Part shown: positions 7,713 to 60,576 of the stretch, one piece after another
Layout: every line of letters begins with the position of its first letter
Position numbering within the stretch: position 1 is the stretch's first letter
Source: Leucoraja ocellata
Taxonomy: Eukaryota
Direction: 5' to 3'
NCBI GenBank assembly: GCA_036785375.1
Contig: JAWMAR010000243.1
Location: 1,364,001 to 1,428,000 of the forward strand
DNA length: 64,000 nt
Translations under genes and position numbers: made by a program
The notes under the pieces: generated by a model
The model's database searches: none
What the model was told of the DNA's origin: nothing
Seen by the model: only the letters and a program-made list of their open reading frames with translations

Positions 7713-9886
7713 CTGGAATTACAGAATATGAAAATAAAGGAGACATACACACAATGAGCACCTTACGAACAGGTCAAAGAATGCATGTGTGTTATTTAAA
7801 CTTCAGTGTAAAATGGTATTAAGTGCTAAACCTTGCCTTTCCAGTAGGTGGCAGCACCCATGCAAAACAAGGGTTTGGGATTTTAGATTCAGGTTAGTAA
7901 TATACACAAAGAAATTCCTCATTCACATAGAGTGCATGGTGTACATGATAATAATAGATAACAATAAATACAATGAAGGATGCAAAACAGCAGAGGTGTC
8001 TAAAGTTGTAGTGCAATTTGAAGTAGCGGAGAAAAAATACTAAAGTAAATTATGGAATAATCAAATATTCTAAAAAAAGTCTAAAAACAGGGTCTCTACC
8101 CAAAATGTCACCCATTCCTTCTCTCCAGAGATGCTGCTTCACCCACTGAATTGCTCCAGCATTTTGTGTCTACCTATGGAATAATCAAGTTGAGTTTAAG
8201 AGGACATCGCGCAGCACCTCTGGGACGGGGGTGTGAAGAAGTGATTGGTTCATGAGTCTGAAAGCTGTGGGGATGAAGCTGTCCTTAAATCTGGGCTTTC
8301 AAGCTCCAGTTACTTCTCTCAAAAGGTAGAAGAGAGAAAAGCCGGGGTGACAGACGTGATTGGTGAGACTCAGCCTTCCTGAGGCATCACACCGTGAAGA
8401 TGGAAGGAAGAAGGAAAAGACAAGTCTGCGATGGACTGTGCTATGTTTACGTCCTCTGCAGGTTCAGGTGATCAAGAGCTGAGCAGCTGCCACAACAGGC
8501 TGTGATGCATCTTGCCAGAATACTTTAAAGAGAGCGAACAAGCTCAGGACATTGAGACATGCTAAGATTCTTTTTCTGAAGTGGGTCATTGGAGTACAAT
8601 TGTACAAAACACAATCCTACAAACCTGCTAATGACCAGCCTGTTTTTGTTGGTGGTGTTGAGTGAGGGCTGGCTATTGCTTGGGGCCACTAGGGATAACT
8701 TCCCTATGGAGGGTGAAGCAACGCTTCAGTTTTGCCCATTTATTTTGTTTCTCGTCCTTCAGATGCTGCCTGACTTCATGCTTCCAGCGTTTTCTGCAGC
8801 CTCAACCTTGGATTCTGTTCATCTCCATTCTACCCATTGGCTGGCCTCCTCCATCCTGATTGAAAATGGTTTCCCTTCCAGTGCTGCTCAAAGAGTGCCA
8901 GGGCGGTTCCAAGTGATTCACTCACCCAGTGATTCAGACACGGCAGCTGAACAACCCACACTATGAAGACATTGCAAGTTACTGTAAGAGAAGCTAATTA
9001 AGAGCGATGATTGTGGGTTGCCGGGGGTAGAACGGAAACTAAGAGCCGGTCACGGACTGTTTCTAAAGAGTACTGTGGTGACAACTTTCCCTTAGTCAAG
9101 TCACTGTGGGTTCGCTACACATTGGCCTCGGGTGGAAACTCTCCTGCTGCTGGCAAAAGTCATTTCAAAACTTATTGACTGACCTATCAGCTTGGTGAAG
9201 AAAGCAGTGTCTTCTGCAAGAACACAGTGACTGGTCCGTAAAAGCAGTTATTTACAGATTATACATACAACCACATCCTGCCATCATTGCATCTACTTCA
9301 TGCCTAAAAACGTTGCCCCCACTGTTGCTTCCCAGAATGTGCACTTTAACCACACACTGCAGATCTTATACAATAGCTTCACCGAGCAGCTTTGATAAGG
9401 CTTTCTGCAAGTTACTATTGGTGTTAAAAGTGCAGAATGCTCTTATTATTCTTTTTCTATCAGTTGCTTTCGCTTTAAGCCTTGTTAAGTTCAACAACAA
9501 TGAAAGCTTGTTTTTCCATTGTGCCTTTCACAATAACCTCCCAAACTTCCTCGCAACAGAATGGCTCAAAGAGGCACATTTCGTGGAGGGGAGAGAGGTG
9601 GAGAGGATCAGAGAGAGAGAAATGCAAAGGTTGAGGCCTGCACAGCCCACAATAGTGGAGGCTCGAGCTGGAATTTGGGAAGAGTATTTTGGGAGCCTGT
9701 ATTTTGTAGAGGTCGGGCCGTAGAAGGATATTAGTATAGGCAGTTGGCCTCAAAAAAATACCTTCACATGCCTTGGACTGTTTCAACAGACAGTATAATA
9801 AAGAGGGATGATAAAAACAGACATTGCTGAAAGCACTCAGCGGGTCAGGCAGCAGTTGTGGAAAGAGAACGAGAGTTCGTGTTTCA

Positions 9887-11231: not shown

Positions 11232-11440
11232 CTCTCTGCCACAGAAGGTAGTTGAGGCCAGTTTATTGGCTATATTTAAGGGGGAGTTAGATGTGGCCCT
11301 TGTGGCTAAAGGGATCAGGGGGTATGGAGAGAAGGCAGGTACGGGATACTGAGTTGGATGATCAGCCGTGATCATATTGAATGGCGGTGCAGGCTCGAAG
11401 GGCCGAATGGCCTACTCCTGCACCTATTTTCTATGTTTCT
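11232..11440 (+). mobile_element. CR1 LINE 3' end inserted into a V-SINE
   Basis: Near-identical in inverse orientation to 1810-2020; SINE pieces on both sides (about 11200-11231 and 11441-11640). Confidence 0.85.
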
Positions 11441-11846
11441 ATCCCCTTTTTGTATTTTACATGCCAAGGCAATTTACAGAGGCCAATTGACCTACAAACC
11501 TGTGGGAGGAAACCACAGCACCCAGAGAAAACCCTCATAGTCACAGGGAGAAAGTATAAACTCCATGCAGACAACACCTATAGTCAAGATTGAACCCGGG
11601 TGTCTGGCGCTGTGAGGCAGCAGCTCTATCATTGTGCCGCTCATTGATCTTATTGGGCCCGGGATGGGGAGTAGAGCAGGTCATTCAGGATTGGCATGTC
11701 CTATCTCTGTTCAGCCATGCTGGGAGGCAAAAGAGTGTGGACACTAATCAAGTCCAGGCAGTGATCTTCCACTTGTGTGGGTTTACGGTTGGGTGAACAT
11801 TCACTGGGTAACAGGATCCCACCAAGATTGGGAAAGAGAACCCTTA

Positions 11847-12062
11847 TGCCCCTGTCCCACTTAGGAAACCTGAACGGAAACCTCTGTAGACTTTGCGCCC
11901 TGCCCAAGGTTTCTGTGCTGTTCCCGGAGTTTGCAGGTGGTTGCAGGTAGTGGAAGCAGGTAGGGAGACTGACAAAAACCTCCGGGAACCGCACGGAAAC
12001 CTTGGGCGGGGCGCAAAGTCCCCAGAGGTTTCCGTTCAGGTTTCCTAAGTGGGACAGAAGCA
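11847..12062. mobile_element. PIF/Harbinger-type MITE with long (~85 bp) TIRs
   Basis: TGCCCCTGTCCCACTTAGGAAACC... / ...GGTTTCCTAAGTGGGACAGAAGCA; TTA TSD on both sides. Confidence 0.88.
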
Positions 12063-12095
12063 TTATAGTTTATTAGAAAGACAGTGAACTCTTAC

Positions 12096-14265: not shown

Positions 14266-14805
14266 CTGTGACAAAGGGAAGGAAAGATTGAAGATGGATC
14301 ATAAAAGGAATATTTTCTTTTCAACACAGAAGCCTTGTATGTGGACATTTGCCCTCGCTTGATTATTCTGAACACACATGGTTAATAACAGTGGTTGCTG
14401 TGCTTCCAAACTTTAAATCAGAGTGATTAAGAGGCCACAGCTTGTGACTGAGAGTCACAGAGAGATTTCCATTCCTTATTGTTCGACTTTTTCACACAAT
14501 ATCCCATTGTGCGTCCTCACCCCAGCAGCTCAGTAGGGAAAAGCATTCAACTCCTAGTGGAGTCATCAAACCACCTGGCCTGGCTATGTCAGCCCTTTAC
14601 TCACTCACTCAGGGAGCTAGTGGATTAGGATTACGTTTATTATTTTCATGTGCACCGAGGTACAGTGAAAAGCTATGTTTTCCAAGCAGATCTGGTATAC
14701 TCTATATAAACACAATCAAGTTAAAGCCAAGTACACTAGATAATGCAATGGGGAAGTTACAAATTGCAGAATATAGTGATGCATCGGTTCCACAGTGTTT
14801 ATTAT

Positions 14806-15168
14806 AGACAATAGGTGCAGGAATAGGCCATTTGGCCCTTCGAGCCAGCACCGCCATTCAATATGATCATGGCTGATCATCCCCAATCAGTACCCCATTC
14901 CTGCCTTCTCCCCATATCCCCCGACTCCGCTATTTTTAAGAGCCCTATTTAGCTCTCTCTTGAAAGCATCCACAGAACCTGCCTCCAACCCCCTCTGAGG
15001 CAGAGAATTCCACAGACTCATCACTCTCTGTGAGAAGAGGTGTTTCCTCGTCTCCGTTCTAAATGGCTTATTCCTTATTCTTAAACTGTGGCCCCTGGTT
15101 CTGGACTCCCCCAACATCGGGAACATGTTTCCTGCCTCTAGCGTGTCCAAGCCCTTAACAATCTTATG
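14806..15168 (-). mobile_element. CR1 LINE 3' end
   Basis: GESRTRGHSLRIRNKPFRTE...LWNSLPQ; TAGACAA tail. Confidence 0.9.
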
Positions 15169-15530
15169 AGGGAAGTTCATTGAAAAGTGGAAAGTGCTGG
15201 TGGCGTTGGGTGTGTAGAATAAGGTATGGGCAGCACAATGGAGATGGGGTTTCACGAGGTTAAAGCTCCAGGAACATCTCCAACCAGAGTTGGCAACTTA
15301 AGCTCTGGGCTGTAATGGAGATATGGTGACTTATCCAGATATTGCCATATAACCATATAACAATTACAGCACGGAAACAGGCCATCTCAGCCCTACAAGT
15401 CCATGCCGAACATGTTCACTGACTCCTCTTAGACTGGGGCTCCACCGTTTGCGATGGTCATGAATGCCTTTCCAATACAATCATGGTGCTTAGAAATATT
15501 TCTCATACACCTGCCTCACTTCTAACTTAC

Positions 15531-15746
15531 CCTGGCCACATCAATCCATCGCTCTATGATCTTGGCTCTGTGTTGAGGCTTCAACGTCTTGTCACTCAAA
15601 CAGGTTGCAATGACACAGTTGGTGACCCGGTTAAACTGTGTGACGGTGGCACGTATTGTTGGTGCCACATGTTCCTTCCCCTTCTTATCCCTCTGGGACC
15701 AGATGCTTCCCAGGCAGTGATATGGAACTACTTTCTTGAACAACTC
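15531..15746 (-). CDS. RALGDS: RALGDS exon 7 (216 nt) ELFKKVVPYHCLGSIWSQRDKKGKEH...WIDVAR
   Basis: Near-identical to recalled RALGDS; GT-AG. Confidence 0.96.
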
Positions 15747-16191
15747 CTGCACAAAAGAAATACAAACTCATAACCTGAACATCCAGAAAACAGACCAATC
15801 ATAGAAAATCAACAATCCTCTGTACGTTAATTTATTTGAATAATTGTGAATTTCAGTGCATTCTAGAGGGGCGGACTAGTCTACATGTGTCCAATGAAAG
15901 TGATCAAATTCATGCCCCAGGGCGGAGCCTGATACAGTTGGCATGAATGTGACAATGCATATCTCCCTCTAAACTGGGAAATCTTACAGGGCCACCACAA
16001 CCAAGCGTGCTCCATGAACTAGCCCACCCTAGGGAGCTCAAAATTGTCAGATATTCAACCTTTGTATCCCTCTGCCTGCTTAAATACAACGTGAAAATAT
16101 TCATTCAGCTGGGTAAGTTGGCGCTATAGAAAGTTAACAACATTGAATCTAATCCACAAAGTGCAACAGAGAAAACTACCTAGTGTTGGAA

Positions 16192-16418
16192 GAAGGTAGA
16201 CAAAAATGCTGGAGAAACTCAGCAGGTGCAGCAGCATCTCTGCAGCAAAGGAAATAGGCAATGTTTCGGGCCAAAACCCTTCCTCAGTCAGAAGAAGGGT
16301 TTTGGCCCGAAACGTTGCCTATTTCCTTCGCTCCAGAGATACTGCTGCACCCGTTGAGTTTCTCCAGCACTTTTGTCTACCTTTGATTTTCCAGCATCTG
16401 CAGTTCCTTCTTAAACAA
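16192..16418. mobile_element. Palindromic Penelope-derived element, same family
   Basis: ~95-bp inverted arms; 13-bp TSD AGTGTTGGAAGAA (16182-16194, 16419-16431). Confidence 0.75.
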
Positions 16419-16684
16419 AGTGTTGGAAGAACTCAGTGGGTCAGGCAGGATCTGAGGAGGGAATGGATAGACGACATTTTGGGTCGGGCCCTCAGATGCT
16501 GCCTGAGTTCCTCCAGCACCTTGTGTCTCCAAAGAGAGAAACGCAGTACACTATAAATTAATTTAAAGTTCAAGCCAATAGTTCCTCCGGGACACAGGAA
16601 TGGGAGATGATTTCTCATTGCCAATCAACGAATCATCTCTGTGCTTTCACAGTCGGGTAAGCGACAAGCCTCATGTCCACTCAC

Positions 16685-16806
16685 CGCGTCCATTAAGGTG
16701 AACTGTTCGGCCACCACATTGGCAACAAAGGAGAGGAAGTCAGGCTTTGGCTCTTCAAAACCGTTCTCCTCAACCATCGTGAAGGTACAGCTACGGTGAT
16801 CTGCCG
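16685..16806 (-). CDS. RALGDS: RALGDS exon 6 (122 nt) ADHRSCTFTMVEENGFEEPKPDFLSFVANVVAEQFTLMDA
   Basis: VAEQFTLMDA starts the CDC25 domain; donor GCG|GTGAG; an alternative in-frame acceptor lies 6 nt downstream. Confidence 0.88.
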
Positions 16807-17085
16807 CTGTGAACACAACACAAGATATAGTCAGCATTCATCAGCTATCCACTACACCGTCAGGTCAGGAGTGACAGGTTAGGTTCTCAACTGTCTCCTA
16901 CTAGTCCAATCTGTTCACCACTGACAGCTATGTCTTCAACTGTCTGTCCCGAGAATTCACTCCCCAGTCCCTTTTGCCTCTCCCAATTTCTCGTTCTTTA
17001 AAGTACTCTTTGAAAAACATCTCTTCTCGTTTAGTTTAGAGATAAAGCATGGAAACAGGTCATTCAGCCCAAGCCCACGCTGACC

Positions 17086-17483
17086 AGGCACGGAAATCGC
17101 TATCAAAACATGCGGGGGACACAATTTCTTGGCGGCCACTCGCGTGCATGCGCGCACACACACACACACATACACGCGAGACTTCGGCCGTGGCCCCTGT
17201 GGACAGTAACATCGGGAGTTGACCTGGTCGGTGACTGACTCCGAACTCCAGCAACAGCAGCTTCGTCCGCCCTGAATCGTGGGACTTGAATCGGCCCGTT
17301 CGCGGGGTCTTTCATCGGCCGACGGGGGCCTCATCATCGTGAGCCTCGATGCAGCAGTTTCATTTTAAGCCGCGCCGGTCGCTGAAAGACCCTGCAAATG
17401 GGCCGATTCAGCCCTTGGAAAGCGTTTGATAAAGTCCGGATTACAAAACATGGGGCGGGGGGGGGTGGGAATCGTCCCACACC
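17086..17483. mobile_element. CpG-rich DNA-transposon-like insertion with (CA)n, inside a V-SINE
   Basis: Abrupt GC/CpG shift splitting the SINE tail (17030-17085) from its body (17484-17675); right terminus not evident. Confidence 0.5.
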
Positions 17484-18744
17484 TCTCCATACACACTCGG
17501 ACCAATTTCACAGAGTCCAATCAACCTACAACCCCACAATTCTTTGGGATGTGGGTGGAAAGCCACGAGGTCACAGGGAGAATGTGCAAACTCCACATAG
17601 ACAGCACCCAAGGTCAGGATCGAACCCGGGCCTTTGGCTGTGAGGCAGTGGCTCTACTAGCTTCACTACCGTTCCACCTGGACGTGGCCTTAAAATCTTA
17701 TTTATCTGCTGAAATTGTTGGAAATTCCTTGTAGATCAGACAGAAAAACAGAGTTAACATTTATAGTCGATTTTTATGGAAAACCATCAACCTGAAATAT
17801 AAGCACTTTATCTATCTCCAAAAATGCTACCAGACCTGCTGAGTCTCTAGCATTTTTTCTTTTAGGATTTCACAATATTATAGTTTTTTGATTCAAATCT
17901 CTTTGCCTTGCACAGTCCCATGAGTTTGATAACATTCTTGGGATGTTGAAAGCAATCGGTAAACATGAGTTGCAGTTATTCAACTTTTTAGAAACCATTG
18001 CAAGCAAAATAATTGGAAACAGACTGGGCAGGCAATAACTGCTGCCACAGAACACATGGATATATGGTGTTCAGCACATTGCAAGCAGCGTGTTGCTGGA
18101 TTCGCAGAAACACACAATAGCCGGGACGAGAACATTGTGGAGATTATTTACATACACAGAAGCAATAACATATCTTTTGTTCTTGTCTGTATTTCTAGCT
18201 TCACACCATCTCTCATGTTTCATATTTCCTCGTGACATTGACTGTTTGGCCTGTTAACTCTTTGCTGCTTTCAAAGTAATCCCATCAATCGCAGTATCTA
18301 AATTATTCCCGCTCACGCTCCCATCAGCTACACTGTTAGATCCAGTTGGGGCAGTTTAAGGTGCCTAATGAATCTACCAACCAGCAAGTGGCTGAATGGG
18401 GAAGGAAACCAGAGCACCTGGAGTAAACCCACTTGGAGAAGATGCAAACTCCATCGTCAACACCAAAGGTCTATATCGATCCAGGATTACTGACGTTGTG
18501 ATGTTGCACCAAACCCCACAGAGTCTCCTCCCTGTAACCCTCTTTATCATTGTGAGGGTGAGTGGTGGTGGTGGTCGCCAACAGTCATCTTATACCCACT
18601 GCCAGGAAGTAATATTACACGTGAGAGACTGTACGTGCCAGGAGAAAGTGAACGTGTTGTGGCCCCTTTCTCTTGAAAGGTGCAGACAGTGAAGGTGTGC
18701 AGGGTGGTGTTTGGGGGTGTGGGCATGGTGCTGCAAGAACCTAC

Positions 18745-18935
18745 CTTGAACAAGGTCCAGCTCTTTGTGCCTTTGGAATGAGCCAAGAAGGACATGAGCA
18801 CGGCGTTGCAGATCCGAACCTGGAAACATCTGATGGATGTAAGTGTAGAGATGCTTCAAGCAGGAATAATCCGGTGGCTTCCTGAAATCTTCAGAATACT
18901 GATCGAGCCAGGCTCCAAGAATGTTTGAAATGGTA
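18745..18935 (-). CDS. RALGDS: RALGDS exon 5 (191 nt) TISNILGAWLDQYSEDF...PGSDLQRRAHVLL
   Basis: WLDQYSEDF motif; acceptor ttcttccag, donor G|GTAGG. Confidence 0.93.
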
Positions 18936-19667
18936 CTGGAAGAAGAATACAAAAAACATGTGAACACCTGGCGATGAATGACCAATGCTTTATGACAAAC
19001 AGCAAACGGCTGTATTACCATGGCTCGTTGGCTGGCTGAAGGGCATATTTCGTGCTGTACAGCTCAATGACTATGATTCATTGACAGGTAAAAATCCTGC
19101 CCCTCTTACCTATCCCAACTCATGCCGGGCTCCTTCACACTAAAGGGTTGACTTGTAATTGCCTTCTGAAATAGTCATGCGACCATCTTGGTTCAGGGTA
19201 AAATGAGCGATGCAGAAAGAAATGCTGCCTTAGCCTCGCGAATAAATAATAAACATTTCCATGGATAGCCGAGCACTGGCTGTAGAGGGTAAAGGAAGTT
19301 TGTCTACCTCGTCTCTCCCACTGACTAAACTGGCTTGCATGGAATTCATTCCTTACAACCACCAGAGGTAGGTATAGAATTTTTTCCCCGTACCAAAGAA
19401 AAACAAAGCCCAATCGTCAGAGCATCTGTTTATGTATGAGCAAAGGTCAATGAGAATTAAACTGCTTCCAAAGAACATCAAAGTTACAGCCCACATCTAA
19501 GCAGATGCCAATCCCCTCAACACTCACTAGCACAGCACAAATGTGCAAAGCAAGAAAACTTGGCACCTAGAAATAGCCCCCCCCTCAAAAATAACAATCA
19601 TTCTCATTTGACAGTACTGTTCTTTTCAGAATGCAACAAGTTTTAGCAAAAACTGTTACTCAGTATT

Positions 19668-20191
19668 AGACAATAGACAATAGGCGCAGGAGTATGCCAT
19701 TCGGCCCTTCGAGCCAGCACCACCATTCAATGTGATCATGGCTGATCATCCACAATCAGTACCCCGTTCCTCCCTTCTCCCCATATCCCCTGACTCTGCT
19801 ATTTTTAAGAGCCCTATCTAGCTCTCTCTTGAAAGCTTCCAGAGAACCTGCCTCCACCTCCCACAGAGGCAGAGAATTCCACAGACTCACCACTCTCTGT
19901 GAGAAAAAGTGTTTCCTTGTCCCCGTTCTAAATGGCTTACTCCTTATTCTTAAACTGTGGCCCCTGGTTCTGGACTCCCCCAATTGGGACCATGTTTCCT
20001 GCCTCTAGCGTGTCTAAGCCCTTAACAATCTTATATGTTTCAATGAGTTTCCTCTCATCCTTCTAAACTCCAGAGTGTACAAGCCCAGCTGCTCCATTCT
20101 CTCAGCAAATGACAGTCCCACCTTCCCGGGAATTAACCTTGTAAACCTACGCTGCACTCCCTCAATAGCAAGAATGTCCTTCCTCAAATTC
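19668..20191 (-). mobile_element. CR1 LINE 3' fragment
   Basis: LRKDILAIEGVQRRFTRLIPG...GESRTRGHSL; (TAGACAA)2 tail. Confidence 0.9.
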
Positions 20192-20244
20192 TGAGATAAA
20201 TGATTAATAATGCTGTAGAAGTATTGGTACACAAAAGGCCTTAC

Positions 20245-20316
20245 TTTTTCAATTCCATCCTGTCATCAGGTGTAAGTTTAGAAACATCTCCATTCATTTG
20301 ATGCAAATTTCCATAT
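20245..20316 (-). CDS. RALGDS: RALGDS exon 4 (72 nt) YGNLHQMNGDVSKLTPDDRMELKN
   Basis: Acceptor tttcttacag, donor AA|GTAAG; phase 2/2 bridges exons 3 and 5; YG...LKN conserved. Confidence 0.85.
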
Positions 20317-21103
20317 CTGTAAGAAACATGAGAGATTTAAACAAATGAGTTCAGGTTATATGAAGGGAAAACAATTTGATGAGACTGAATATCCAGTTAC
20401 TGTAGCTTCTCATTCTAAAGGACTGGGGTTTGATCCCATCTCTCTGCTGGATCAGCTGGTGATGCACCATGTACATTCCAGGGGGGTTTGAGTAATGGCC
20501 TGAGGGTTTCTGCTGGGCCACTTGTGCTGGGTCAAGAGAGGACAGACTCAGACTGGAGTGCAGTTTCGCCATCCAATACTTCAGCCAAATAACCATGCTC
20601 AATGCGACAAAGCCAGATTTTAGCTTTACTGGTGAGCTATAGAGTGAGCAGAACTGTCACAATGGGAATGCCGGCTCTTGCTTAGCCCTCCACACTTAAT
20701 AAACTAAAGGACACCATGCCTCCGAGTCTTTCATCAGCTCTTTACCAGAGAAGCTGCAGGGGTAACTCGATTGAATTTGCCAGTGACAAAAATTAGCTGA
20801 GTTAATTACACTCAGGCTCCACACATCTCTTCATTGTAACGTTCTATTCCTTTCTGCCTCAAGTATTTCCCTTCAATACATTTGCTTCAGCTCGACATGT
20901 AAGTGCTCCTTGGGAAGAGCTTTCCCCTTAATTTACTTTTAATGACTTGCTTTTATTTAGGTCCCCCTCTATCTCATCTCTTTACAAGCACAAATTAACT
21001 TTATGTTAAGCCTATCGAATCTTCACACGGCTTAACGGCCTCTATTGAGTCACCGTCCCCAGCTGTCCCCGCCCTAGGGAACAGGCCAGCCCGCTGCAGT
21101 CAC

Positions 21104-21297
21104 CTGTTGAGCAGTAGGTCCAACACTTGTTTGGTTGATGCGAAGGCCCTGTAAGTGCAGAGGAAGATGGTGACGTAGGTGGAGTCATTGCCTTTAAAGG
21201 CCGACACCAGGTATTCCACGAGTTTCTCCAGGGTCCCGGCCTTGATGGTCCGAATTTTGCACGTTTCGTACAGATTCATGGCAGACTCATTCTCCAC
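21104..21297 (-). CDS. RALGDS: RALGDS exon 3 (194 nt), REM domain VENESAMNLYETCKIRTIKAGTLEKLV...LDLLLNR
   Basis: ORF track hit; CAG acceptor, AG|GTGAC donor. Confidence 0.95.
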
Positions 21298-22519
21298 CTG
21301 TTAAGAAGAAGCAGAGGCATGTCATGGGGGTACAAGGCAACTGTGGATGATGGAATCGTGAGCAAAACACAGACTGCTGGAGGAACTCAGCCGGTCAGTC
21401 AGTATCGGTGAAGAAAATGAACAGGTGAAGAAGTTTTGGGTCGAGACCCTTCTCCAATCTAAAGAAGAGTCCCAACCCAAAACGTCACCTGTCCATTCCC
21501 GATAGAGATGCTGCCTGACCTGCTAAGTGCTTCCAGTGCCTTGTGAGATGTACATCATGTTAGGATGCAAGGGACCCAGGGTTAAAAGCATTAAACTGTA
21601 GACAAGACATTCAGAACTGAACGCCCTGATATCACTGCTGTTGGAATGGCCTGGGACAAGGTCAGCTTCTTGCCCGCTGCTACATGCTACATTGCATAAA
21701 CAACAACAAAACATTATTACAGCCCTAAATGCCAGCTCCCATGATGACTCGGGCAAAATTATCCAGGGAGGGGCTGAGTAACACAAGCCAATCAGCCAAA
21801 ATGCAACATGAAAGTAAGCTAGAAATTCCAGTGTAAGTAATACAAATGGCCAGACGCACACAGCCAAGAGCATATATTGAGGGAGAAACAGTGGATAGAG
21901 TCACAGAGCCATGAGGCATAAAAACAAGCCCTCAGCCCAACTCATCCATGCCGACCAAAATGCTCAATCTAAGCCAGTCCCATTTGCCTGTGTTTGGGCA
22001 AACCTTTCCTATCCATGTACCTGTCCAAATGTTTTTAAAATGCTGTTATTGTACCTGCCTCAACTAGCTGGTCTGGCAGGTCCTCCTGTATACCCATCAC
22101 CCTCTGTGTGGACAAAGTTGCCCTTCAGGTTCCTATTAAATCTTTCCTCTCACGTTTAAAAACACCCCTGGACTATCTGTGATCAGACTTTACTGGCTTT
22201 ATCTTGCACTAAACATTGTTCCCTTTATCATGTATCTGTACACTGCGGATGGCTCGATTGTAATCATCTGTGGTTTTCTTGCCGACTCGTTAGCACGCAA
22301 TACAATCCAGGTTTTCAATGTACCGTGATACAGGTGACAATAAACTAAACTAAACTAAACTACGCTCTCTAGTTTTTTGGTACCTCTATTCTGGGAAAAA
22401 TACATGATGCATTTATTCAGTCTGTTCACCTCATGATTTTATACACCTCTATAAGTTCACCCCTCGTTGTCCTGCGCTCCAAGGAATAAAGACCTAGCCT
22501 GCCCAAACTTTCCCAATAG

Positions 22520-23031
22520 CCTAACTGGCCTGATGGGCACCCGAAAAAGGGACCACATCACCCCGATCTTGGCCTCTCTCCACTGGCTCCCTGTGCGGTT
22601 CCGTATACATTTCAAGACCCTCCTCTATGTTTACAAAGCCCTCAATGGGCTTGCCCCCCTCCTACATTAAAAGTCTTCTCACCCACCACTCCACCTCCAG
22701 GTCCCTCAGATCGGCCGAACTGGGGCTGCTGAATATCCCGCGGTCTAGGCATAAGCTTAGGGGCGACCGCGCCTTTGCGGTTGCAGCCCCTAGACTGTGG
22801 AACAGCATCCCCCTTCCCATCAGAACTGCCCCCTCCATCGACTCCTTTAAGTCACGACTAAAAACATATCTATACTCCTAAGCCTTTCCCGACGTCCACT
22901 GAGCGAGGGCTATATGTATATATGTATGTAGTTTGTTTGTTTATACTATTCTTATAACAAATGTAAAGCACTTTGGCCAACGAGAGTTGTTTTTTAAATG
23001 TGCTATATAAATAAATGTGACTTGACTTGAC
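22520..23031 (+). mobile_element. L2-clade LINE 3' end
   Basis: DHITPILASLHWLPVRFRIHFK...RGDRAFAVAAPRLWNSIP...FKSRLKTYLY (one frameshift); 3'UTR ending AATAAA and (GACTT)n. Confidence 0.88.
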
Positions 23032-23258
23032 CCTAGTCCTGGCCACATCCTCACACGCAACCTCAGCGCTCCTTCCACACACAGGTGTGACAGAAATGCA
23101 AATGTATCGCTTGTTCTTCTACACCTTTGTCTTTAATGATGACTCAAAGCAATTATTTTGAATGTTGTTGATAATAACCATGAGCGGGTTACTGGTGGGA
23201 ACTGGCGGAGTTGAGGGGTGGTCCCGGCACTGTGGGATTTTGGTAGTGATGTACTTAC

Positions 23259-23369
23259 CCCAAGCCATCGTTGTCCTTTGCTCGCTGTGTGGTGCACCTG
23301 CACCCTCCTCAGCGTTATGGTATAGATTGCACCGTCTTCTGTCTCCTCACCAATCTCCTGCGCTGCGCT
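23259..23369 (-). CDS. RALGDS: RALGDS exon 2 (111 nt) SAAQEIGEETEDGAIYTITLRRVQVHHTASKGQRWLG
   Basis: Acceptor ttacag, donor GGG|GTAAGT; QEIGEE and KGQRWLG motifs. Confidence 0.93.
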
Positions 23370-23636
23370 CTGTAAGGCAAATACACCTTTGACTACAATG
23401 CCCCATGTAACCTTCAGCTCTTATGAATAAAAGCAGAACATGCTGCAAGCTCTCAGCAGCTCAGGCAGTATCTGTGAAGAGCAAAGCAGAGAGAGCATTT
23501 CAGGTTGATGGCCTTTCTTGGAAATGCTGCCAAACCTGTCGTGTATCTCCCGCAGTTTCTGTTTTTCGTTTTGGGATTTCCAACATCTTAGTTATTTGCT
23601 TTTTGAAGTCAGCAGACACACCGCTCAGCAGTATGT

Positions 23637-23801
23637 TTAAGAAGGAACTGCAGATGCTGGAAAAATCGAAGGTACACAAAAATGCTGGAGAAACTCAGCG
23701 GGTGCAGCGGCATCTATGGGTTTCGGCCCGAAACGTTGCCTATTTCCTTCGCTCCATAGATGCTGCTGCACCCGCTGAGTTTCCCCAGCATTTTTGTGTA
23801 C
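23637..23801. mobile_element. Palindromic Penelope-derived element, centre partly deleted
   Basis: Inverted arms; 16-bp TSD CC(G/A)CTCAGCAGTATGT (23621-23636, 23802-23817). Confidence 0.72.
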
Positions 23802-24342
23802 CCACTCAGCAGTATGTCTCATTGGGAAACTCTGCTGATTCTTTTTCCATTCATTCCCAGCCCTGGATACTGAAGCCATGTGTAGGCAAGAAGACACAAA
23901 GCACTGGAGCAACGCAGCGGGCTAGGCTGCATCCCCGGAGGATTTGAGACAGTAACGTTTGGGTTGGGACCCTTCTTCAGAGTCTGCATCTGCAGTTTCT
24001 TGTGAACTCACACAGTGCAGCCACTGTGCCCAGAGAACAGTGACACGGGTTGTTGGGACACAGTGGGAACTGCTACCGACCGGGAGATGGTTACCCTCTG
24101 TAACCATGTAGCCAGGCAGCCCAGTTGCATTTGTTTTCCTACTCATTGCCGCAGCCTGAATGTTTTGGAGAGAGCTGTTTTCTTTCAAGCGCTGACATCT
24201 GATTAGAGGCTAAACCTTAAATCAAAACAACACTACTTACATCTACTGTCAGCTTGTGACAAAAGGCAGTTTAGAAGCACAGGCATCCCTCAAGCTTTAA
24301 ATGATGAACCAAAGCACTGATGCAATGATGTACTGGATCAAT

Positions 24343-24499
24343 TTAGTTAGATAGAGCTCTAGGGGCTAGTGGAATCAAGGGATACGGGGAGAAGGCAGGC
24401 ACGGGTTATTGATTGGGGACGATCAGCCATGATCACAATGAATGGCGGTGCGAAGGGCCGAATGGCCTCCTTCTGCACTTATTTTCAATGTTTTCTATG
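24343..24499 (+). mobile_element. CR1 3' tail
   Basis: GATCAGCCATGATCA..GAAGGGCCGAATGGCCT 3'UTR. Confidence 0.8.
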
Positions 24500-26285
24500 C
24501 TGGGCCCACATCAGACACAAGTAGGGGATCTCGACGATACTGCCCCACCACCTAGACCCACGTTGCCCAGTGTGGGAACTTCTAATGTTTGCTGATCCCA
24601 AGACCCTTCGACAGCAATACTCTTGGGTGTCCACATGTAGCTTGGGGATGGGTGGTGGTCAAGATTGTCAGTCTGCAGTGACTCCGGATTAGCACCTAAG
24701 CAGCCGGAACCTCTGCTATTTTGACAAATTAAGGGAGACACAGAAGAGAATTTGCAGAAGGCATTGAGGAGCACCTGTGTAGAATACTGTTGAAGATAAG
24801 TCAACAAAAGCCCATCAAACTATTTCTAGGTTTCGCCCATGTTATGGAGATCAGAAACTTGTATTTCTAACAATATATATACACTTCATGAGTAAACTTG
24901 CAATTGCATAATATCCTACTCATCCATTGTATGTGTACCTTGTAGTACATCTGTTTACCATAGTTACATGATGTCAGCAAGGCATCCCAATCATGCTCTG
25001 TCTGGGACGTTTGCTTTGCAGAGCCCAGCCTCCATGGGCTGTTGTGGGGAATGCCTTAAAACTGTGGCATTTCCTCACAGAGCTTTCGCAGCAGCTGTAC
25101 TACGTGCCAGCCACTCCCTCCGCACGTAATCCTGCATGGAATGTACCAGTTGGCAACACTCAGTTACGAGCAGCTCCCTGTACTTGATGACCAACAGACC
25201 CGGGCAGACCAAAGTGTATTTTTCACTGAGTTAATGATAAACCAGCAGCAATCAATGTCTCTGTGTGCATCACTGAGAACAATCCATAGAGCCCTGGGAT
25301 AGAGCGAGCAAGGGATGAGCCTTAGCACACACACACTACAGTTTTCCTTGGACAACACACTTTGTGAGAGATGGGCACCAACTCATTCCCTCCACCGTAG
25401 CCTCAAAGGCCGGATACCGTGGTGCCCAGATTCGGGCTGTTCTGAATGTCGAACTGGCATTTAGGCCAAGAGCCTTCAGGAGTTCCGCAAAAGAGTTACT
25501 GTTAAAAACCCCTGTGACATTACGCATGCTGTAAACAACCGGAGCTGTAGTTTGACCCTCTTTGTTCTCTGGACAAGCAGAAGAGGAGGGCGGTGCAGCA
25601 GTTTATTAGAGGGAGGGAATGATACAAAGGCAGCCTGCCATGTCCAATAAAAACGCATCGCAACAATGTGCCCAGCATCACCATTCCTGCTGGTTTCTTG
25701 GTAATTAGAGTGTCCCCTGTAGCTTGTCTTGCCCTAAATATTAATGAACGATGAGGCAGTGACGGGGAAGTAGACAGGGCATTGCCATGGTGATACACAA
25801 TATTTCTCTGGACAGCCCATTAAAACCCTGCTGTTGCAGACAAATTGAGTTTGACATCTTATTTTACAGATTACAGCTTAGTTTATTGTTATCTATACCA
25901 GGATGCAATGAATTTCACATTGAGCTCAGAGTACATAGAGTATTGATAAATGCAACAATAAATATGAGTGCAAAAGAATGATGTAATATTGTGGTGCAAA
26001 AGAATATTAAAGTACAATAATGGAAACACTAATGAGGTGGAGTTTAGAGTACCTAGCAGCCCCCTCTGGGAATGTGGTATGATAAAAGTCATGGTTTCAG
26101 GAGTGATAGCAGCGGGCATGAAGTTGTTCTTAAAGTCGGGACGTCCTGTTTTTTCAAGCTCCCTTATCTCATCACAAATGGTGGAAGAGGGAAAAGGAAA
26201 TGGCCAGGGTGGCAGGCATCCTAGACAATGTATTTACACATTGCAGTCACACTGTGTTGATGGTGGACAGATTCAGTGTTTAGAT

Positions 26286-31564: not shown

Positions 31565-33613
31565 ACTCTCCAATAGCGCTTTAGGGATGAATTTGATATA
31601 GTAAAACGTCTTGACTTATTTCCAGTCTGTATCGTTTCACATGTTAATGCACTGCCCATTTGCTGCCACTACTAACATTGAATCTGCAAGCTGTTGAAAT
31701 GCGACCCGTCTTTAAGGAACAACAACAGTTGGCCGTTTTAAAATGGCTGGTCTCAGTGCACCCCATGCTAAGTTTTGTAGCCGAGGACTTTGCTTTGATT
31801 CTTTGTTTACATCTATAGCTGTATTAGTCGCTTGTGGTTGATGAAATTCTCCCACATTCTTCAATGTCTCCTCCATAGAAACTATGCATTTTGTCTGGAC
31901 ATTTGAAGTCAAGATTTTGCATTCTCAAAAACGTAGAGTGAACTTGCTCATTTTCCAGTCCACATTCTTAATTTATGCATACATGCCGAGGCTTAGTATC
32001 AGGACAGCCATGTTGCCCACTACAGTTGAACAGTGACATGGCCAAACTTGGTGTGGTCAATGCCATCGTCCCTGTGGCCTGTTCTGCTGTGTCCTCTCAT
32101 CAATACACGCACACACTTTAGACGCACAAATTCAGTTTGTGTGTCGCAAGAAAAAAATGTTTTGTTGCTGCGAACCCAACTAAAACTAAAAATGAAACTT
32201 ATTCAGGCAAGAGTCGATGTTCTTCAACAGTCCTGAGGAAAGGTTACACAAGAGGCTAGGCTCTCGTGTAGCGTGTAACACAAGAGGCTTGCGCAAAGGC
32301 TATATTGCTACACCTGCCTGTAATGCCGTCACAACTCCATTGAAGTGTGAACCAATTACAGCAAAAATAATGGTTTATCTACAACTCATAACATTTAACC
32401 CCCATAAGTGCTGAGTGCGCTCGGCTTGATGTCATTATTTTTACACATCATCAGATTCTCCTTTCGAAAAGCATCACAAGCCTCTCCTCTCCCGGCATCA
32501 CTCTTTTTGTCAGGTTGCAGTGATGTTCCCTCTATCTGTCCAGAAAGATGCGAACCAATTCGAATGGGACCGACTCACTTCCTTCCTTCAACCACAAAAC
32601 AAATCCATTGGGCTTGATATTTGTCTTGTGTGGATGGTAGCTATGGATGGTAGCTATGGACACCGATTTGGATGGAATCTTGAAACTACTTTGAGTAAAT
32701 GCAGATCTGTCCTTCATTCTCTTTTCAATTCCAAAATTTGTCTGGAAAGATTATGGTCTACAATTCCATTTACTGGATTCCTTCCTGCACAGGTTAATGG
32801 AAGTATTCCTGTGGTTAGTATTTCCACCCATGGAGCAGCTTAGCACAGTGCAAACACACAAGTATACAAATGCACATGAACACATCACACACTTGGCATG
32901 GTTTTTAATCCCACATGCATGAAATGAAAACTTTGGAGTTATTTTCCTGCAGAGAGAAGGTTTATTGATTCTCCTTTCACTGCTCCCCATCTCTTAGTGC
33001 GTTGGAGCCACGCCAGATAAAGCACCATGGTTACGCTAAATATTTACCGTCCAAATTGATGTCAAGGTAAAAAGCGCAGTTTAATTCTAGTTTTCCAATT
33101 CTCATTTCTGATGCGACTCTGGGCTGCCAGCTGCCTTGGCGACTCTAAGTATTGTGTGTAAACCCGGGTTGGGTGAGTAGTGTAATGTGATAGCCAGGCT
33201 GGTATGAAGGATTGCTCAACATGCTTATCTTCAGCCGGTGAGGAATTAATTGAATAAAGCCGACGAGCTTAGACCCCCCGTCCATATTTCCAACTGCGAA
33301 TCATTAAGGGCATACAAGAGATCTACTTCATTATTTCAGTAATGAATTAAGTTCTCCAGGATCCATGATGATCCATTAGGCAGACATCTCCCAGGTCTTC
33401 TCTGTTCATAATAGGTTGGTTCCCATAAACTACAGGTCTGGATCAAATGAGCAAAAGATTTGCAAATTCAAAGCACCTTTTATGATGTCAAAATGTCCCA
33501 TCCAACCACAACCCCTTACACTCAGCAGGATATTAGAGGCAATTCGCCTGCTGAGTGTTTCCAACATATGTTGCTTTGACACAAGAGTGCTAGCAACTAA
33601 GTTACAATGATAT

Positions 33614-33821
33614 GAAGGTACACAAAAATGCTGGAGAAACTCAGCGGGTGCAGCAGCATCTATGGAGCGAAGGAAATAGGCAACGTTTCGGGCCAAAACC
33701 CTTCTTCAGACCCGAAACGTTGCCTATTTCCTTCGCTTCATAGATGCTGCTGCACCCGCTGAGTTTCTCCAGCATTTTTGTGTACCTTCGATATTCCAGC
33801 GTCTGTAGTTCCTTCTTAAAC
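33614..33821. mobile_element. Palindromic Penelope-derived non-autonomous element with hammerhead core
   Basis: 79-bp inverted arms (33614-33692 / 33711-33789, one mismatch); ~17-bp TSD AAGTTACAATG(A/C)TATGA; minus-strand CTGAAGA-AGGGTTTTGGCCC-GAAAC-GTT. Confidence 0.75.
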
Positions 33822-35821
33822 AAGTTACAATGCTATGAGCTTTGTTATTCAGTTGAATTCAGTTTGTGTCCTGCCTGCACCTACACAAGGCAACTCTTTC
33901 ATGTGAGAATGAAACAAAGGGGGTGGACAGGCTAGAACACAAGGAATGGACATATTCTCTCCCACTTTAGTTAGCTAAGGCTCTCTGGTTCATTTTCAAG
34001 GACAGATCATGGAAATTGTAACATCTGGAAGTTCAGCTTGTCAGAATATCCATGTTGTCTATTCAGGGCAAGAGGCATAACAGTAAGCAAGCATAGTTAC
34101 TATTTAACATTATATTCAAATAGAGGCACTAAAGGGTTGAACAGACCTTGCTGAACCAGTTTTTCAAAGATAATATATTCAGAGTACATAATCAGAACAT
34201 AATGTTCGATTGTGTGTTGTACATCACTGCTGATGCTAAGAAAGGCATTTCTCCGTACTTTAAGGTTACATTTAGACTCATTGTTTTGAAGGACTTAGCA
34301 ACGTGAAGAGAACCTTCTCAACCTTCTTCCTCAAAATAACCATGTCAAAGTTGTTGCTAGCAGAATGAAATGATGATTAAGAACAAAAGACACTCTGAGA
34401 ACACTTCCTCCTTTCATTGTTAAACTTTTTCCCTCCTCGAGTTGATGACTCAAGCGCTCAGCTACTCCCCGAAACCCTCAATTATCCATTCTTGATCTGC
34501 GAGTTTCGATGGTGAGCAGCAATGGGGTATCCGACAGCAGATGGCAGCAAACATTTGTCTTGTGTGGATGGTAGCGGTTTCTAATTATGCCATAGACACA
34601 CACATACCCACCCACCCACAACCAGACATCCAGATCCTATCTTGACCTTGCATACTGTCTGTGTGGAGATTGTACGTTCTCCTTGTGACCACGTGGGTTT
34701 TCTCCTGGTGCTCTGGTTTAATAATAATAATACATTTTATTTATGGGCGCCTTTCAAGAGTCTCAAGGACACCTATTGACCCACATCCTAAAGATGTGGG
34801 AGTCTGTAGATTAATTGGCCTTTCTAAATTTCGCCTAGGGTGAGGGAAGTGGCTGAGGAAGTGGGATAACACAGAACTAGTGTGAATGGGTGATCAATAG
34901 TTGTATTTAGTGGGTCGAAGAGCTGTATCTCTAAACTAAACCGCTGAGAACAATCGGGGGGCTGGCAGGGGGGCTGTCAAGAATGAAGAGGGACCTGGTG
35001 GGGGGGGGGGGGGGGGTGTGCGTTGGGGGATACCTGCTGTCACGTGCGGCGGGAAGGCAGTAGATAAGAATGTTCAGTGATTTTGTAACTTTCTCGGCAT
35101 TTGCCATATGATTTTACCGGGTTGTATGAAAACAAGGCATTTCACTGTAACTAGGTACTTGCGACAATAAAATATCATTGAAATAAAGTGTCATGGAAAC
35201 TATAATCGGAAGCCTCGCCCATGGCCCCCCCCCCTCCCCCATCACCACGTTTGATGTTCCTGCACCTCAAGAGAAAAAAGTAAGCACTGCCGTCCGTCAA
35301 TCTCGTGAGTACAAGAATGAAAGTGACAGTGAGTAGAATGAATGCAAGTGAGCACGTGCAGAGCACCAGATAACCCCATCTACTGATGCACCATGTATCT
35401 CTGGCAGCTGAGATAGGGCACTTTTTGGAAAAGCCATTCATAGAATTGAGGTAGTCGGTATATTCTTCACTATCCCTTTACTGTGAATATTTGTGGAATG
35501 TGCAATAAACACAGAGAGAGAGTTGAACTCCAATGCCTGTGTCTGCTCAGCTTGTCTGGTTATGGGGAGCAGGGCAGTGCTGGGACAGGGAGGAGCAGAG
35601 AGTCCTGCTGCCTAACATTCCTCAGAGAACCACATAAACAACTGGGGAACTTTGTCAAAACGATATATGTTGAAACTGTTGTGTCCTTGTGGATTAGTTT
35701 GTCTTCCCCATTAAATCTTAATCTCCAGTCAAGTGTAAAAACTGCTGAATGTTTTCTTTCTAATTTTCTGCCTCGTGTCTCCCAAGATGGTTTATTGTTG
35801 TTGCACACCTGGGTCAGCACG

Positions 35822-45829: not shown

Positions 45830-45935
45830 ACATAGAAACATAGAAAATAGGTGCAGGAGTAGGCCATTCGACCCTTCGAGCCTGCACCGCCATTCAATAT
45901 GATCATGGCTGATCATCCAACTCAATATCCTGTAC
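45830..45935 (-). mobile_element. CR1 3' tail nested in the Rex/Babar LINE
   Basis: (CATAGAAA)2 tail and CR1 3'UTR. Confidence 0.8.
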
Positions 45936-59109: not shown

Positions 59110-59426
59110 TCATATCCTGAAGGGATTTGGAAAGAGTAATGAGATGTTTAAATGCTGTTGCATTGTTTAACTGGGAACAATGGTGGGTCAGTGAGCACGG
59201 GGGGGCCCTAATAATTCCGACTTCAATTAAAAATCAGAGTTAAACACTGTAATTGAATTAACAGCTATTGACTCAGTTAATAGAAAGGGGAGTGAGGAGT
59301 GAAGAATCGAAGGACTTATTGGACTTCTTTCTCTGCAACACAATTCCGTACCCTACATCTCGGCTGTAGTTTGGATGAGAAATGACTTCAGCATTTTCCA
59401 AACACTCTTATGAATTCTAAAAGATA

Positions 59427-60576
59427 CTAGACTAAGTGGGACCCGTTGGGTCCCTGTCACACGGGAGGCCCGTTCCCCCAACTCAATATTCCACCACTCA
59501 CGCCTATCCACCCCCCCTCCATCAAATCCACCCTTCCCTGTCCCCCTCTCCCTTCTACCCCCCTCCCTCCCCCCTGCACTCCTCAACCCCTCTACCCCAC
59601 ACGCTCCCGCTCTTTCCCGCCTCCCTCCCTCCCTCTCTTCCCCCCTTTCCTCCCCCCCCTCTCTCCCTCATCTCTCTCTCCCCTCCGTCCTCCCTCCCCC
59701 CCCAAGCTGTGGGCCGGGCTACAGCGTTCCCCTCTCCATGTAATGTTGTGGTGCATTAAGGCCGCTCCCGGTGACCACACCCACGGGCAGGAGCCGCTGG
59801 AGTGCTGCCCATCCCGGGACCCACGGTGTCCCTCGCCAACGGGTAGACAGCGGGGCTCGGTGCTGCCCCACCCCCCCACCATTCTCCCTCTACCACCCTA
59901 TCTCCCTCCTCCCCATTTCCCTCATCCTCCTCCTCCCCTCACTCCAATTCCCTGCCCCCAGCATCTACTCAGGTGGCAGAGCAGCGCCAGGGCCTGGAAA
60001 CTCGGCCTGGTCCTCGTACTCGGCCCGACCCTGGCTGTTGGCGGCTGAAGCACTCGAGGGCCTGGGCCTTGACGGAGCCGGGCTCGCTGTGCCGGGGGCG
60101 GGGTGAGTGCGGCGGGCGGCAGAGCTAGAGTTGCCCGCAGAGCAGGAAGCAGAGGCTGTGCACCAGGATGATGGTGGCCGGGCAGCTCCCGAGGCACTGG
60201 TACACCATGACCAGGCCCCGGGGTTGGGCACGACTCCGGCCCTCAGCTCGGCCGCTGCCTGGGATGCAGTCCATGCCCCGACAGCGGCCAATCAGTGCGG
60301 CGATGGTGCCAGGAACAGGAGACTGACAGGAGAGGAGACCAATCTGCGTGGCAGTGACTGACAGCAATCTGCGCATGCGTGATTTTTAGGATTTATAAAC
60401 ATTAATAACTTTAACAATATTCCATCGATCGGAATGAAACTTGTTGCACTTGCAGCACGGGCAAACGGTGAGTACGCCGGTGAAACATCGGAACGCTATC
60501 ATGTACCATTTTCGCGCAAATAGAAAATCCGCGCAAACTGGTAGAGCACAAGATCAGAGTTTTAGTTATGTATAGA
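59427..60576 (-). mobile_element. Non-autonomous Helitron
   Basis: On the minus strand it starts TC (TCTATACATAACTAAAAC) and ends CTAG. A perfect 7-bp GC hairpin GGGACCC-n3-GGGTCCC (59438-59454) lies 7 nt inside the CTAG. Inserted in an A|T dinucleotide with no TSD. Confidence 0.85.
59967..60230 (-). pseudogene. Degraded coding fragment inside the Helitron, SAC3/GANP-domain (SAC3D1-like)
   Basis: Strong GC3 codon bias; reads MVYQCLGSCPATIILVHSLCFLLCGQL*LC...EPGSVKAQALECFS.../AEYEDQAEF/QALALLCHL with one stop and about two frameshifts; resembles recalled SAC3D1 motifs. Confidence 0.55.

Follow-up and report, generated by a model that had tools for sequence, protein, structure and literature searches.

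A family of short repeats, many of them palindromic, was found in a 64,000-nucleotide (nt) stretch of the genome of the skate Leucoraja ocellata (contig JAWMAR010000243.1, positions 1,364,001 to 1,428,000; this whole stretch is called the window below). The repeats lie in and beside the gene RALGDS, and one of them, a palindrome at 33599-33838, carries a minimal hammerhead ribozyme motif. They are probably dead-end insertions of the ribozyme-bearing end, a pseudo-long terminal repeat (pLTR) and a tail, of an endonuclease-bearing Penelope-like element (PLE), and the mirror shape was probably built at insertion and not copied from a palindromic master. The evidence consists of target-site duplications, fixed 3' ends, a one-sided tail, head-to-head joins, differing centres, a sharp 5' edge and decay without selection.

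The palindrome at 33599-33838 is enclosed by direct repeats of 17 nt (33599-33615 and 33822-33838, plus strand) that differ by one mismatch, and the last 2 nt of the left repeat are common to the end of the first arm. This tail-less arm (33614-33711, minus strand) is sense to RALGDS, starts 2 nt before position C3 of the hammerhead and stops at a short 3' end, approximately +95 counted from C3. The other arm (33711-33821, plus strand) starts at +17, without the CUGANGA segment, and runs to a long 3' end at approximately +128. Its last 32 nt (33790-33821) are a one-sided tail, which can be compared with the tail of 30-40 base pairs (bp) in PLEs (PMC8557442). The arms overlap by 1 nt at 33711 and are 99% complementary over 79 nt (33614-33692 versus 33711-33789). 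The hammerhead motif occupies 33680-33711 on the minus strand, with C3 at 33709 and a predicted cut between 33682 and 33681. It comprises a native helix I of 2 bp, CUGAAGA, an extra A, a 4-bp helix II with a 4-nt loop, and GAAA-C-G-UU.

An nhmmer profile built from nine arms detected 35 arms in the window, whereas each of five shuffles gave none. Eighteen arms were paired, in nine head-to-head pairs, and 17 were solo; a previous interpretation made from the letters alone (the sequence-only reading) had counted more than 10 solo arms. From 5' to 3', an arm consists of the hammerhead motif, approximately 65 nt, the short end at +92 to +95 from C3 and, optionally, a tail to +128 to +130, and the young arms have these two fixed 3' ends. 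Nine of the ten adjacent arm pairs were head-to-head, the tenth being a young copy at 16192 that abuts an older copy, so that it represents two separate insertions. Exactly one arm was tailed in eight of the nine head-to-head pairs.

There were two other young palindromes in the window. One (16182-16431) has an exact 13-nt duplication (16182/16419), and both of its arms reach the hammerhead start and carry two diagnostic variants. The other (23621-23817) has a 16-nt duplication with one mismatch (23621/23802), a tailed minus-strand arm from +44 and a tail-less plus-strand arm from +8, and lacks a complete hammerhead. The inserts between the repeats were 224, 165 and 206 nt long in the 16192, 23637 and 33614 copies, and the duplications of 13, 16 and 17 nt agree with the hairpins and 13-17-bp direct repeats that the sequence-only reading had placed there. 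Repeats of at least 11 nt (17, 16, 14, 13 and 11) were present at five of the 24 units examined, including an older solo tail-less arm (8051-8188, plus strand) with its own exact 14-nt duplication and an older head-to-head pair (63333-63556) with an 11-nt duplication. A repeat score of at least 13 arose in 7 of 1500 random placements, and the 9-nt matches at two units were at chance level. On both sides, the outer ends of the insertion overlap the target by 1-3 nt. At 16182-16530 the young palindrome has inserted where an older head-to-head pair (16415-16530) ends, and the sequence that was duplicated belongs to the older copy.

A near-perfect hairpin (z -24) could also belong to a DNA miniature inverted-repeat transposable element (MITE) or to a microRNA-type precursor, and weak Rfam microRNA matches were found. 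However, the duplication length varies from 11 to 17 nt, the ends are asymmetric and the centres variable, the solo arm at 8051 has a duplication of its own, and all 16 Rfam matches were below the gathering scores, with the hammerhead family not among them. This explanation has a negligible chance of being correct, and the earlier preference for a target-primed retroelement over a MITE is supported by the variable duplications, the asymmetric ends and the one-sided tail.

The structure of the centres bears on how the mirror shape arose. The three young palindromes have three different centres, with arm 5' starts near 0/-3, +44/+8 and -2/+17 (16192, 23637 and 33614), and therefore the palindrome does not appear to be mobile as a unit, as had been proposed. 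In four of the eight tailed pairs (7125, 23425, 23637 and 33614) the tail-less arm extends further 5' than the tailed arm; in the remaining pairs the arms tie in two cases and the tailed arm is longer in two. Because in those four pairs each arm holds sequence that the other is without, neither arm was copied from the other unless there was a later deletion. Both arms at 16192 carry 47G and 88C, two variants that the 23637, 33614 and 62388 arms do not have, indicating that the arms of one insertion came from one template lineage.

These observations were weighed against a PLE origin in which the second arm was made by fold-back self-priming of the first cDNA, or on an antisense template, followed by loss of sequence at the centre. 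Head-to-head PLE palindromes have been ascribed to self-priming in a published proposal (PMC3846280), arms belonging to a single insertion do have variants in common, and in four of the eight pairs the tailed arm is at least as long on its 5' side as the tail-less one. The other four pairs, including 33614, would each need a second deletion, the tail-less arm having extra 5' sequence and the tailed arm its tail, and the outer ends, which overlap the target by a few nucleotides, are fixed on both sides. Fold-back synthesis is thus improbable. Dual priming on RNA would explain the different centres, the arm differences, the target overlaps and also the published nicking of both strands.

Kinship with PLEs, which the sequence-only reading had proposed, is supported by the layout (an inverted short copy with a one-sided tail), by the fit of the motif and by a near-identical hammerhead found near a PLE-type reverse transcriptase (RT). 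An inverted pLTR, a one-sided 31-bp tail and a target-site duplication have been published for PLEs (PMC3846280). A strict hammerhead pattern had no match in metagenome contigs, and pattern scans gave none in viral contigs or in prokaryote genomes; a relaxed pattern found one locus in the metagenome contigs, L001, from another animal. The L001 hammerhead is of the same subtype (TCAGT, CUGAUGAA, GGGU-loop-ACCC, GAAACGUU), and approximately 1 kb away, on the opposite strand, tblastn located a decayed open reading frame (ORF). The relatives of this ORF carry RVT_1, many of those listed carry GIY-YIG as well, and the best named ones are from bony fish. A viral sequence, L002, also gave a short match to the L001 RT (23 amino acids, E 8e-4). 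The pattern space was about 2e12; chance could have produced a match at some place in the collection, but is unlikely to have placed it next to a PLE-type RT. Upstream of the L001 hammerhead there is a TATATA, 31 nt from the A of TCAGT, and that A is 3 nt before C3. This link is indirect. Overall, the skate family works like a PLE terminus and very probably is one. The L001 segments at 536-640 and 791-2818, a hammerhead with a TATA box and a CCAAT-like box opposite the decayed PLE-type ORF, lack an inverted repeat, and the arrangement may be either an inverted pLTR or a bidirectional promoter.

Copies outside the window were surveyed in RNA reads and DNA contigs by mapping to the solo tailed arm of the young subfamily at 62388-62518 (plus strand), whose hammerhead has U at position 3. 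The reads were chosen at 85% likeness, which biases the sample toward young copies, and the RNA data were two runs of a related species sampled at 5 and 1 parts in 100. There were 15,507 matching records among 12.9 million RNA records (~0.1%), and 45,234 and 78,273 matching contigs in two DNA runs, so the high copy number suggested earlier is in fact very high. Loose ends of reads and contigs accumulated at two sites, 62483 and 62518, past which the sequence was mixed (agreement 0.35-0.41), and therefore the two fixed 3' ends hold genome-wide. Further piles at 62476, 62513 and 62424 track differences of the 62388 copy from other copies. On the 5' side, depth fell from approximately 4600 to approximately 100 between adjacent bins (~45-fold), and the loose ends there had about seven letters in common, ending in TCAGTC (agreement 0.39-0.59 over 30 letters). 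Comparison of 21 window arms found no common upstream sequence beyond overlapping coordinates, neighbouring arms and unrelated repeats.

The spacing from a TATA box to the initiator is usually 31 nt. The sharp drop in depth, the lack of common upstream sequence and the TATA spacing at L001 are the reasons for reading the 5' edge as a transcription start, and the short insertions, or stubs, would then be run-off products of priming close to the RNA 5' end. From these data we infer an enzyme, a start site and dual priming that would act as follows. The element RNA would start approximately 3 nt before the hammerhead core, at the initiator-like TCAGT, and the element endonuclease would make a staggered cut 13-17 nt wide. 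Both 3' ends would prime reverse transcription on the RNA, one from a far site (+128, which yields the tail) and the other from a near site (+93), and both cDNAs would run toward the RNA 5' end, at most approximately 130 nt away, to be joined head-to-head with an overlap of 0-3 nt and variable loss. Priming of one strand alone would leave a solo arm. After insertion, the hammerhead decays like other sequence, and in a palindrome it is predicted to be paired into a long hairpin. In vitro, an anole PLE protein nicks and extends both strands and uses two internal start sites that bound the tail, and it is predicted to be a dimer (PMC11167929). Ribozyme-cleaved RNA was also considered as the main template, and rejected: cleavage predicts an end at +28, and none of the eight young arms starts there. 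A minor class of cleaved-RNA templates may be present among the 852 rows of loose ends beyond those listed.

A more specific proposal likens the stubs to strong-stop DNA, of which they would be the Penelope counterpart. Every transcript would start at an initiator located 3 nt ahead of the hammerhead and would have the two RT start sites at each of its ends, and a dimeric enzyme would prime both strands of a staggered cut, one per site. Priming on the 5' copy would yield stubs and palindromes, and priming of one strand on the 3' copy would yield the classic long element with an inverted pLTR. This proposal is tentative, with a chance somewhat below even.

Several points weigh against insertion of a PLE terminus by dual priming. 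A search of the 64-kb window, which contains no full element, with tblastn and a profile of 90 PLE-type proteins gave no matches, and the peptide read from the arm ATG through the tail had no homologue, a weak test with a short query. L001 comes from another animal, represents one locus and was selected by a hammerhead pattern; its likeness is limited to the hammerhead region, and the hammerhead is antisense to the ORF. Later deletion at the palindrome centres could mimic mutually incomplete arms. The site that the anole enzyme cleaved in both strands in vitro was an ATT motif, and a 13-17-nt stagger is not reported in the available part of PMC11167929. Finally, some reads extend upstream into C-rich sequence (run X22, agreement 0.59), and for this reason the 5' edge could be a stalling point and not a start.

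The survey also bears on whether the stubs are a separate non-autonomous family, with an internal promoter and self-transcribed, mobilised by a PLE enzyme in trans in the manner of short interspersed elements; the palindromes would still be built at insertion. Such a family would fit the very high copy number, the sharp 5' edge, the distinct subfamilies and the lack of an ORF nearby in the window, and pLTRs suffice for mobilisation in trans (PMC3846280). However, nothing specific indicates transcription driven by the stubs, and the L001 TATA box lies outside the unit. In the two RNA runs of the related species, no site where many molecules begin or end on the solo arm was present among the positions listed, and 97% of the matching X24 records extend into unlike sequence, as expected of passengers in host RNA. 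Run-off from the 5' end of a full element RNA accounts for such stubs with no need of a separate family; the latter is unlikely, though less so than fold-back synthesis.

Other features of the mapped records were noted. In the single-cell reads of run X22, across 62390-62515, the strand opposite to the hammerhead was 6.0 times commoner at the 5' end and 2.4 times commoner at the tail; depending on the library direction, this excess may represent antisense transcription, host-gene orientation bias or priming bias. Joints going back 34-35 nt across the hammerhead (62394-62430) occurred in both RNA and DNA runs; either the motif has undergone short tandem duplication at other places, or head-to-head junctions may have been misread. 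In run X4, related-species contigs enter the solo arm from both flanks (62279-62650), and thus the insertion at 62388 appears to be common to more than one species.

At the centre of the 33614 palindrome the minus-strand letters and the hammerhead core are as the sequence-only reading gave them, and the minimal type I pattern agrees with the consensus of PLE minimal hammerheads (PMC4209133). Two of the helices had been drawn differently. Helix II is better described as 4 bp, GGGU/GCCC, with a 4-nt loop, and the 4-bp stem I is an artefact of the junction, in which only GU (33711-33710) is native and the outer GG (33713-33712) comes from the opposite arm, whose first letters it gives in reverse complement. 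The native family sequence before the core is AGU, giving a helix I of 2 bp. Over 15 arms helix II was 91.7% paired, nine arms having a U-A pair and four a U-G pair, and covariation in helices I and II was no better than in shuffles (74 of 500). The full minimal-hammerhead descriptor, for which one match arose in 2 of 100 shuffles, was passed by only two of the 35 arms, 33709 (minus strand) and 62390 (plus strand, U3), and the former was the only one among the 24 arms within the gene.

Preferential conservation of the core, whose lack the sequence-only reading had named among the outcomes that would refute it, was not seen. Twenty arms extend as far as the core, and in these the majority letter accounted for 171 of 220 letters of the core, compared with 692 of 880 downstream (p=0.78). 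The catalytic G12 was lost in ten of these arms. In the RNA reads G12 was changed from G to A in 9.4%, within the range of five other CpG sites (5.4-14.5%). Since the core is kept no better than its flanks and the G12 change is within the CpG-site range, inserted copies decay without selection. Selection on the hammerhead would have acted in the active parent only, an inference from the pattern that the subfamilies have in common.

Folding predictions were made for the sense transcript of the 33614 copy, in which the opposite arm is made first. The whole element is predicted to fold as one hairpin (-168.6 kcal/mol), in which the hammerhead would be locked; forcing the hammerhead fold costs 31.1 kcal/mol and the probability of helix II is 1e-8. 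In a solo arm, helix II with an open core costs 0.2 kcal/mol. As possible sense partners for a dimer, the 23637 sense arm is without the motif and the 16192 sense arm has a C-A mismatch at 15.2-16.2. The published minimal monomers showed no cleavage (PMC4209133), and the anole hammerhead motif required protein (PMC11167929). Because of the predicted hairpin penalty, the broken sense partners, the inactive monomers and the protein dependence of the anole motif, cutting of RALGDS pre-mRNA is unlikely, and the self-cleavage envisaged in the sequence-only reading is not supported by these predictions.

That reading held that the family is a retrozyme-like palindromic element placing sense hammerheads able to cut RALGDS pre-mRNA. 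The 33709 motif, which passes the full descriptor and lies sense in intron 1, speaks for it. The folding cost, the lack of preferential core conservation, the unremarkable G12 change and the inactivity of published monomers speak against it, as do the lack of orientation bias described below and the arrangement of the copies, with no tandem units among the 35 arms or the eight tandem repeats listed. A retrozyme-like nature is very improbable.

The host gene, the intronic site and the sense orientation had been identified correctly. Exons encoding the RasGEF and Ras-association domains were both on the minus strand of the window. The first RALGDS coding exon (43293-43111, minus strand) is 100% identical to the start of the Amblyraja radiata isoforms X4/X5 and 98% identical to that of Leucoraja erinacea. 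When proteins were mapped back onto the window, the second coding exon was at 23372-23256 (minus strand), with an intron of approximately 19.7 kb upstream; this first intron contains the 33614 and 23637 copies, and the 16192 copy is in a later intron. Within RALGDS, 11 arms were sense and 13 antisense, showing no orientation bias. Orientation selection within the gene was rejected, with three solo arms sense and five antisense. For the stretch 14600-24500 no RNA data set containing it was listed, which does not bear on expression. A Pfam scan of 150 of the 153 frames of at least 80 amino acids found RasGEF alone over the cut-off, and neither RT nor GIY-YIG.

Additional features of the gene and the window were observed. 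In most arms, including 33660-33675 (minus strand) and 62422-62442 (plus strand), a pyrimidine run ending in AG directly precedes an ATG and is kept in young and old arms. From its letters it looks like a splice acceptor and could act as a cryptic acceptor in sense introns. In the young subfamily the frame from the arm ATG is open through the tail. A GC-rich island at 59400-60400, upstream of the mapped first exon, is possibly a further promoter or first exon. The RALGDS exon at 3047-2796 (minus strand) fully matches the 809-amino-acid isoform, and the 751-amino-acid isoform matches from 2876 only, which suggests alternative acceptors. An unrelated inverted repeat at 11839-12070 has 94-nt arms, 88% complementary, and a 44-nt spacer. 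Copies of a dispersed family of 100-300 nt, up to 95% identical, were present at 1812-2111, 11233-11430, 14804-15103, 19673-19972 and 45832-45935, and presumably resemble the 3' ends of long interspersed elements.

The layout and the motif of the skate family are already known from PLEs and the copies are decaying, so the family carries little weight as a ribozyme system or as a regulator of RALGDS. Its value lies in the data. Fixed 3' ends and a sharp 5' edge in tens of thousands of copies make dual priming and run-off testable by junction counts. PMC8557442 describes the way in which PLE tails and inverted ends arise as unresolved; if the strong-stop proposal is true, the junctions in the skate, which number tens of thousands, would settle the formation of these structures as a fossil record. 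The family can also be confused by annotators with MITEs or microRNA hairpins. A literature search found no paper on such a family in skates or sharks; Repbase and Dfam were outside that search, and the family may already be catalogued there.

Among known systems, the skate copies are most directly compared with the Pen2/Pen2a insertion units of Adineta vaga (PMC3846280; scheme in PMC8557442), which likewise have a head-to-head inverted short copy, a tail of 30-40 bp at one end, target-site duplications and solo pLTRs. In contrast to those units, the skate insertion is the pLTR end and tail alone (165-224 bp), without an ORF, and its duplications are 11-17 bp compared with 8-10 bp in rotifer PLEs (PMC3846280). 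The motif resembles the metazoan PLE minimal hammerheads (PMC4209133) in CUGANGA-H, a G-C pair opening helix II, GAAA, a palindromic C-G in place of helix III and NUH, and also in its dispersed single copies with a second motif nearby on the opposite strand; it differs in the short helix II (4 bp) and the 2-bp native helix I. The 56 PLE hammerhead motifs aligned in Fig. S3 of PMC4209133, in its text form, include no cartilaginous fish. The non-LTR retrozymes of animals (bioRxiv 10.64898/2026.07.22.740005) are also non-coding, carry a type I hammerhead and are related to PLE pLTRs, but they are arranged in tandem, head to tail, and contain two or more intact motifs, whereas the skate copies are head-to-head or solo, flanked by duplications and mostly broken. 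In the Poseidon element PAc of Anolis carolinensis (PMC11167929), as in the skate, two RT start sites downstream of the hammerhead bound the tail, and no RNA ends were seen at the cleavage site (in the skate, among the positions listed). Unlike the skate stubs, PAc was studied as a full element. Its ORF starts inside helix II, and no ORF start could be demonstrated in the skate family. The distance from the far end to the start of helix II is similar, 121 nt in the skate and 111-118 nt for the main PAc site.

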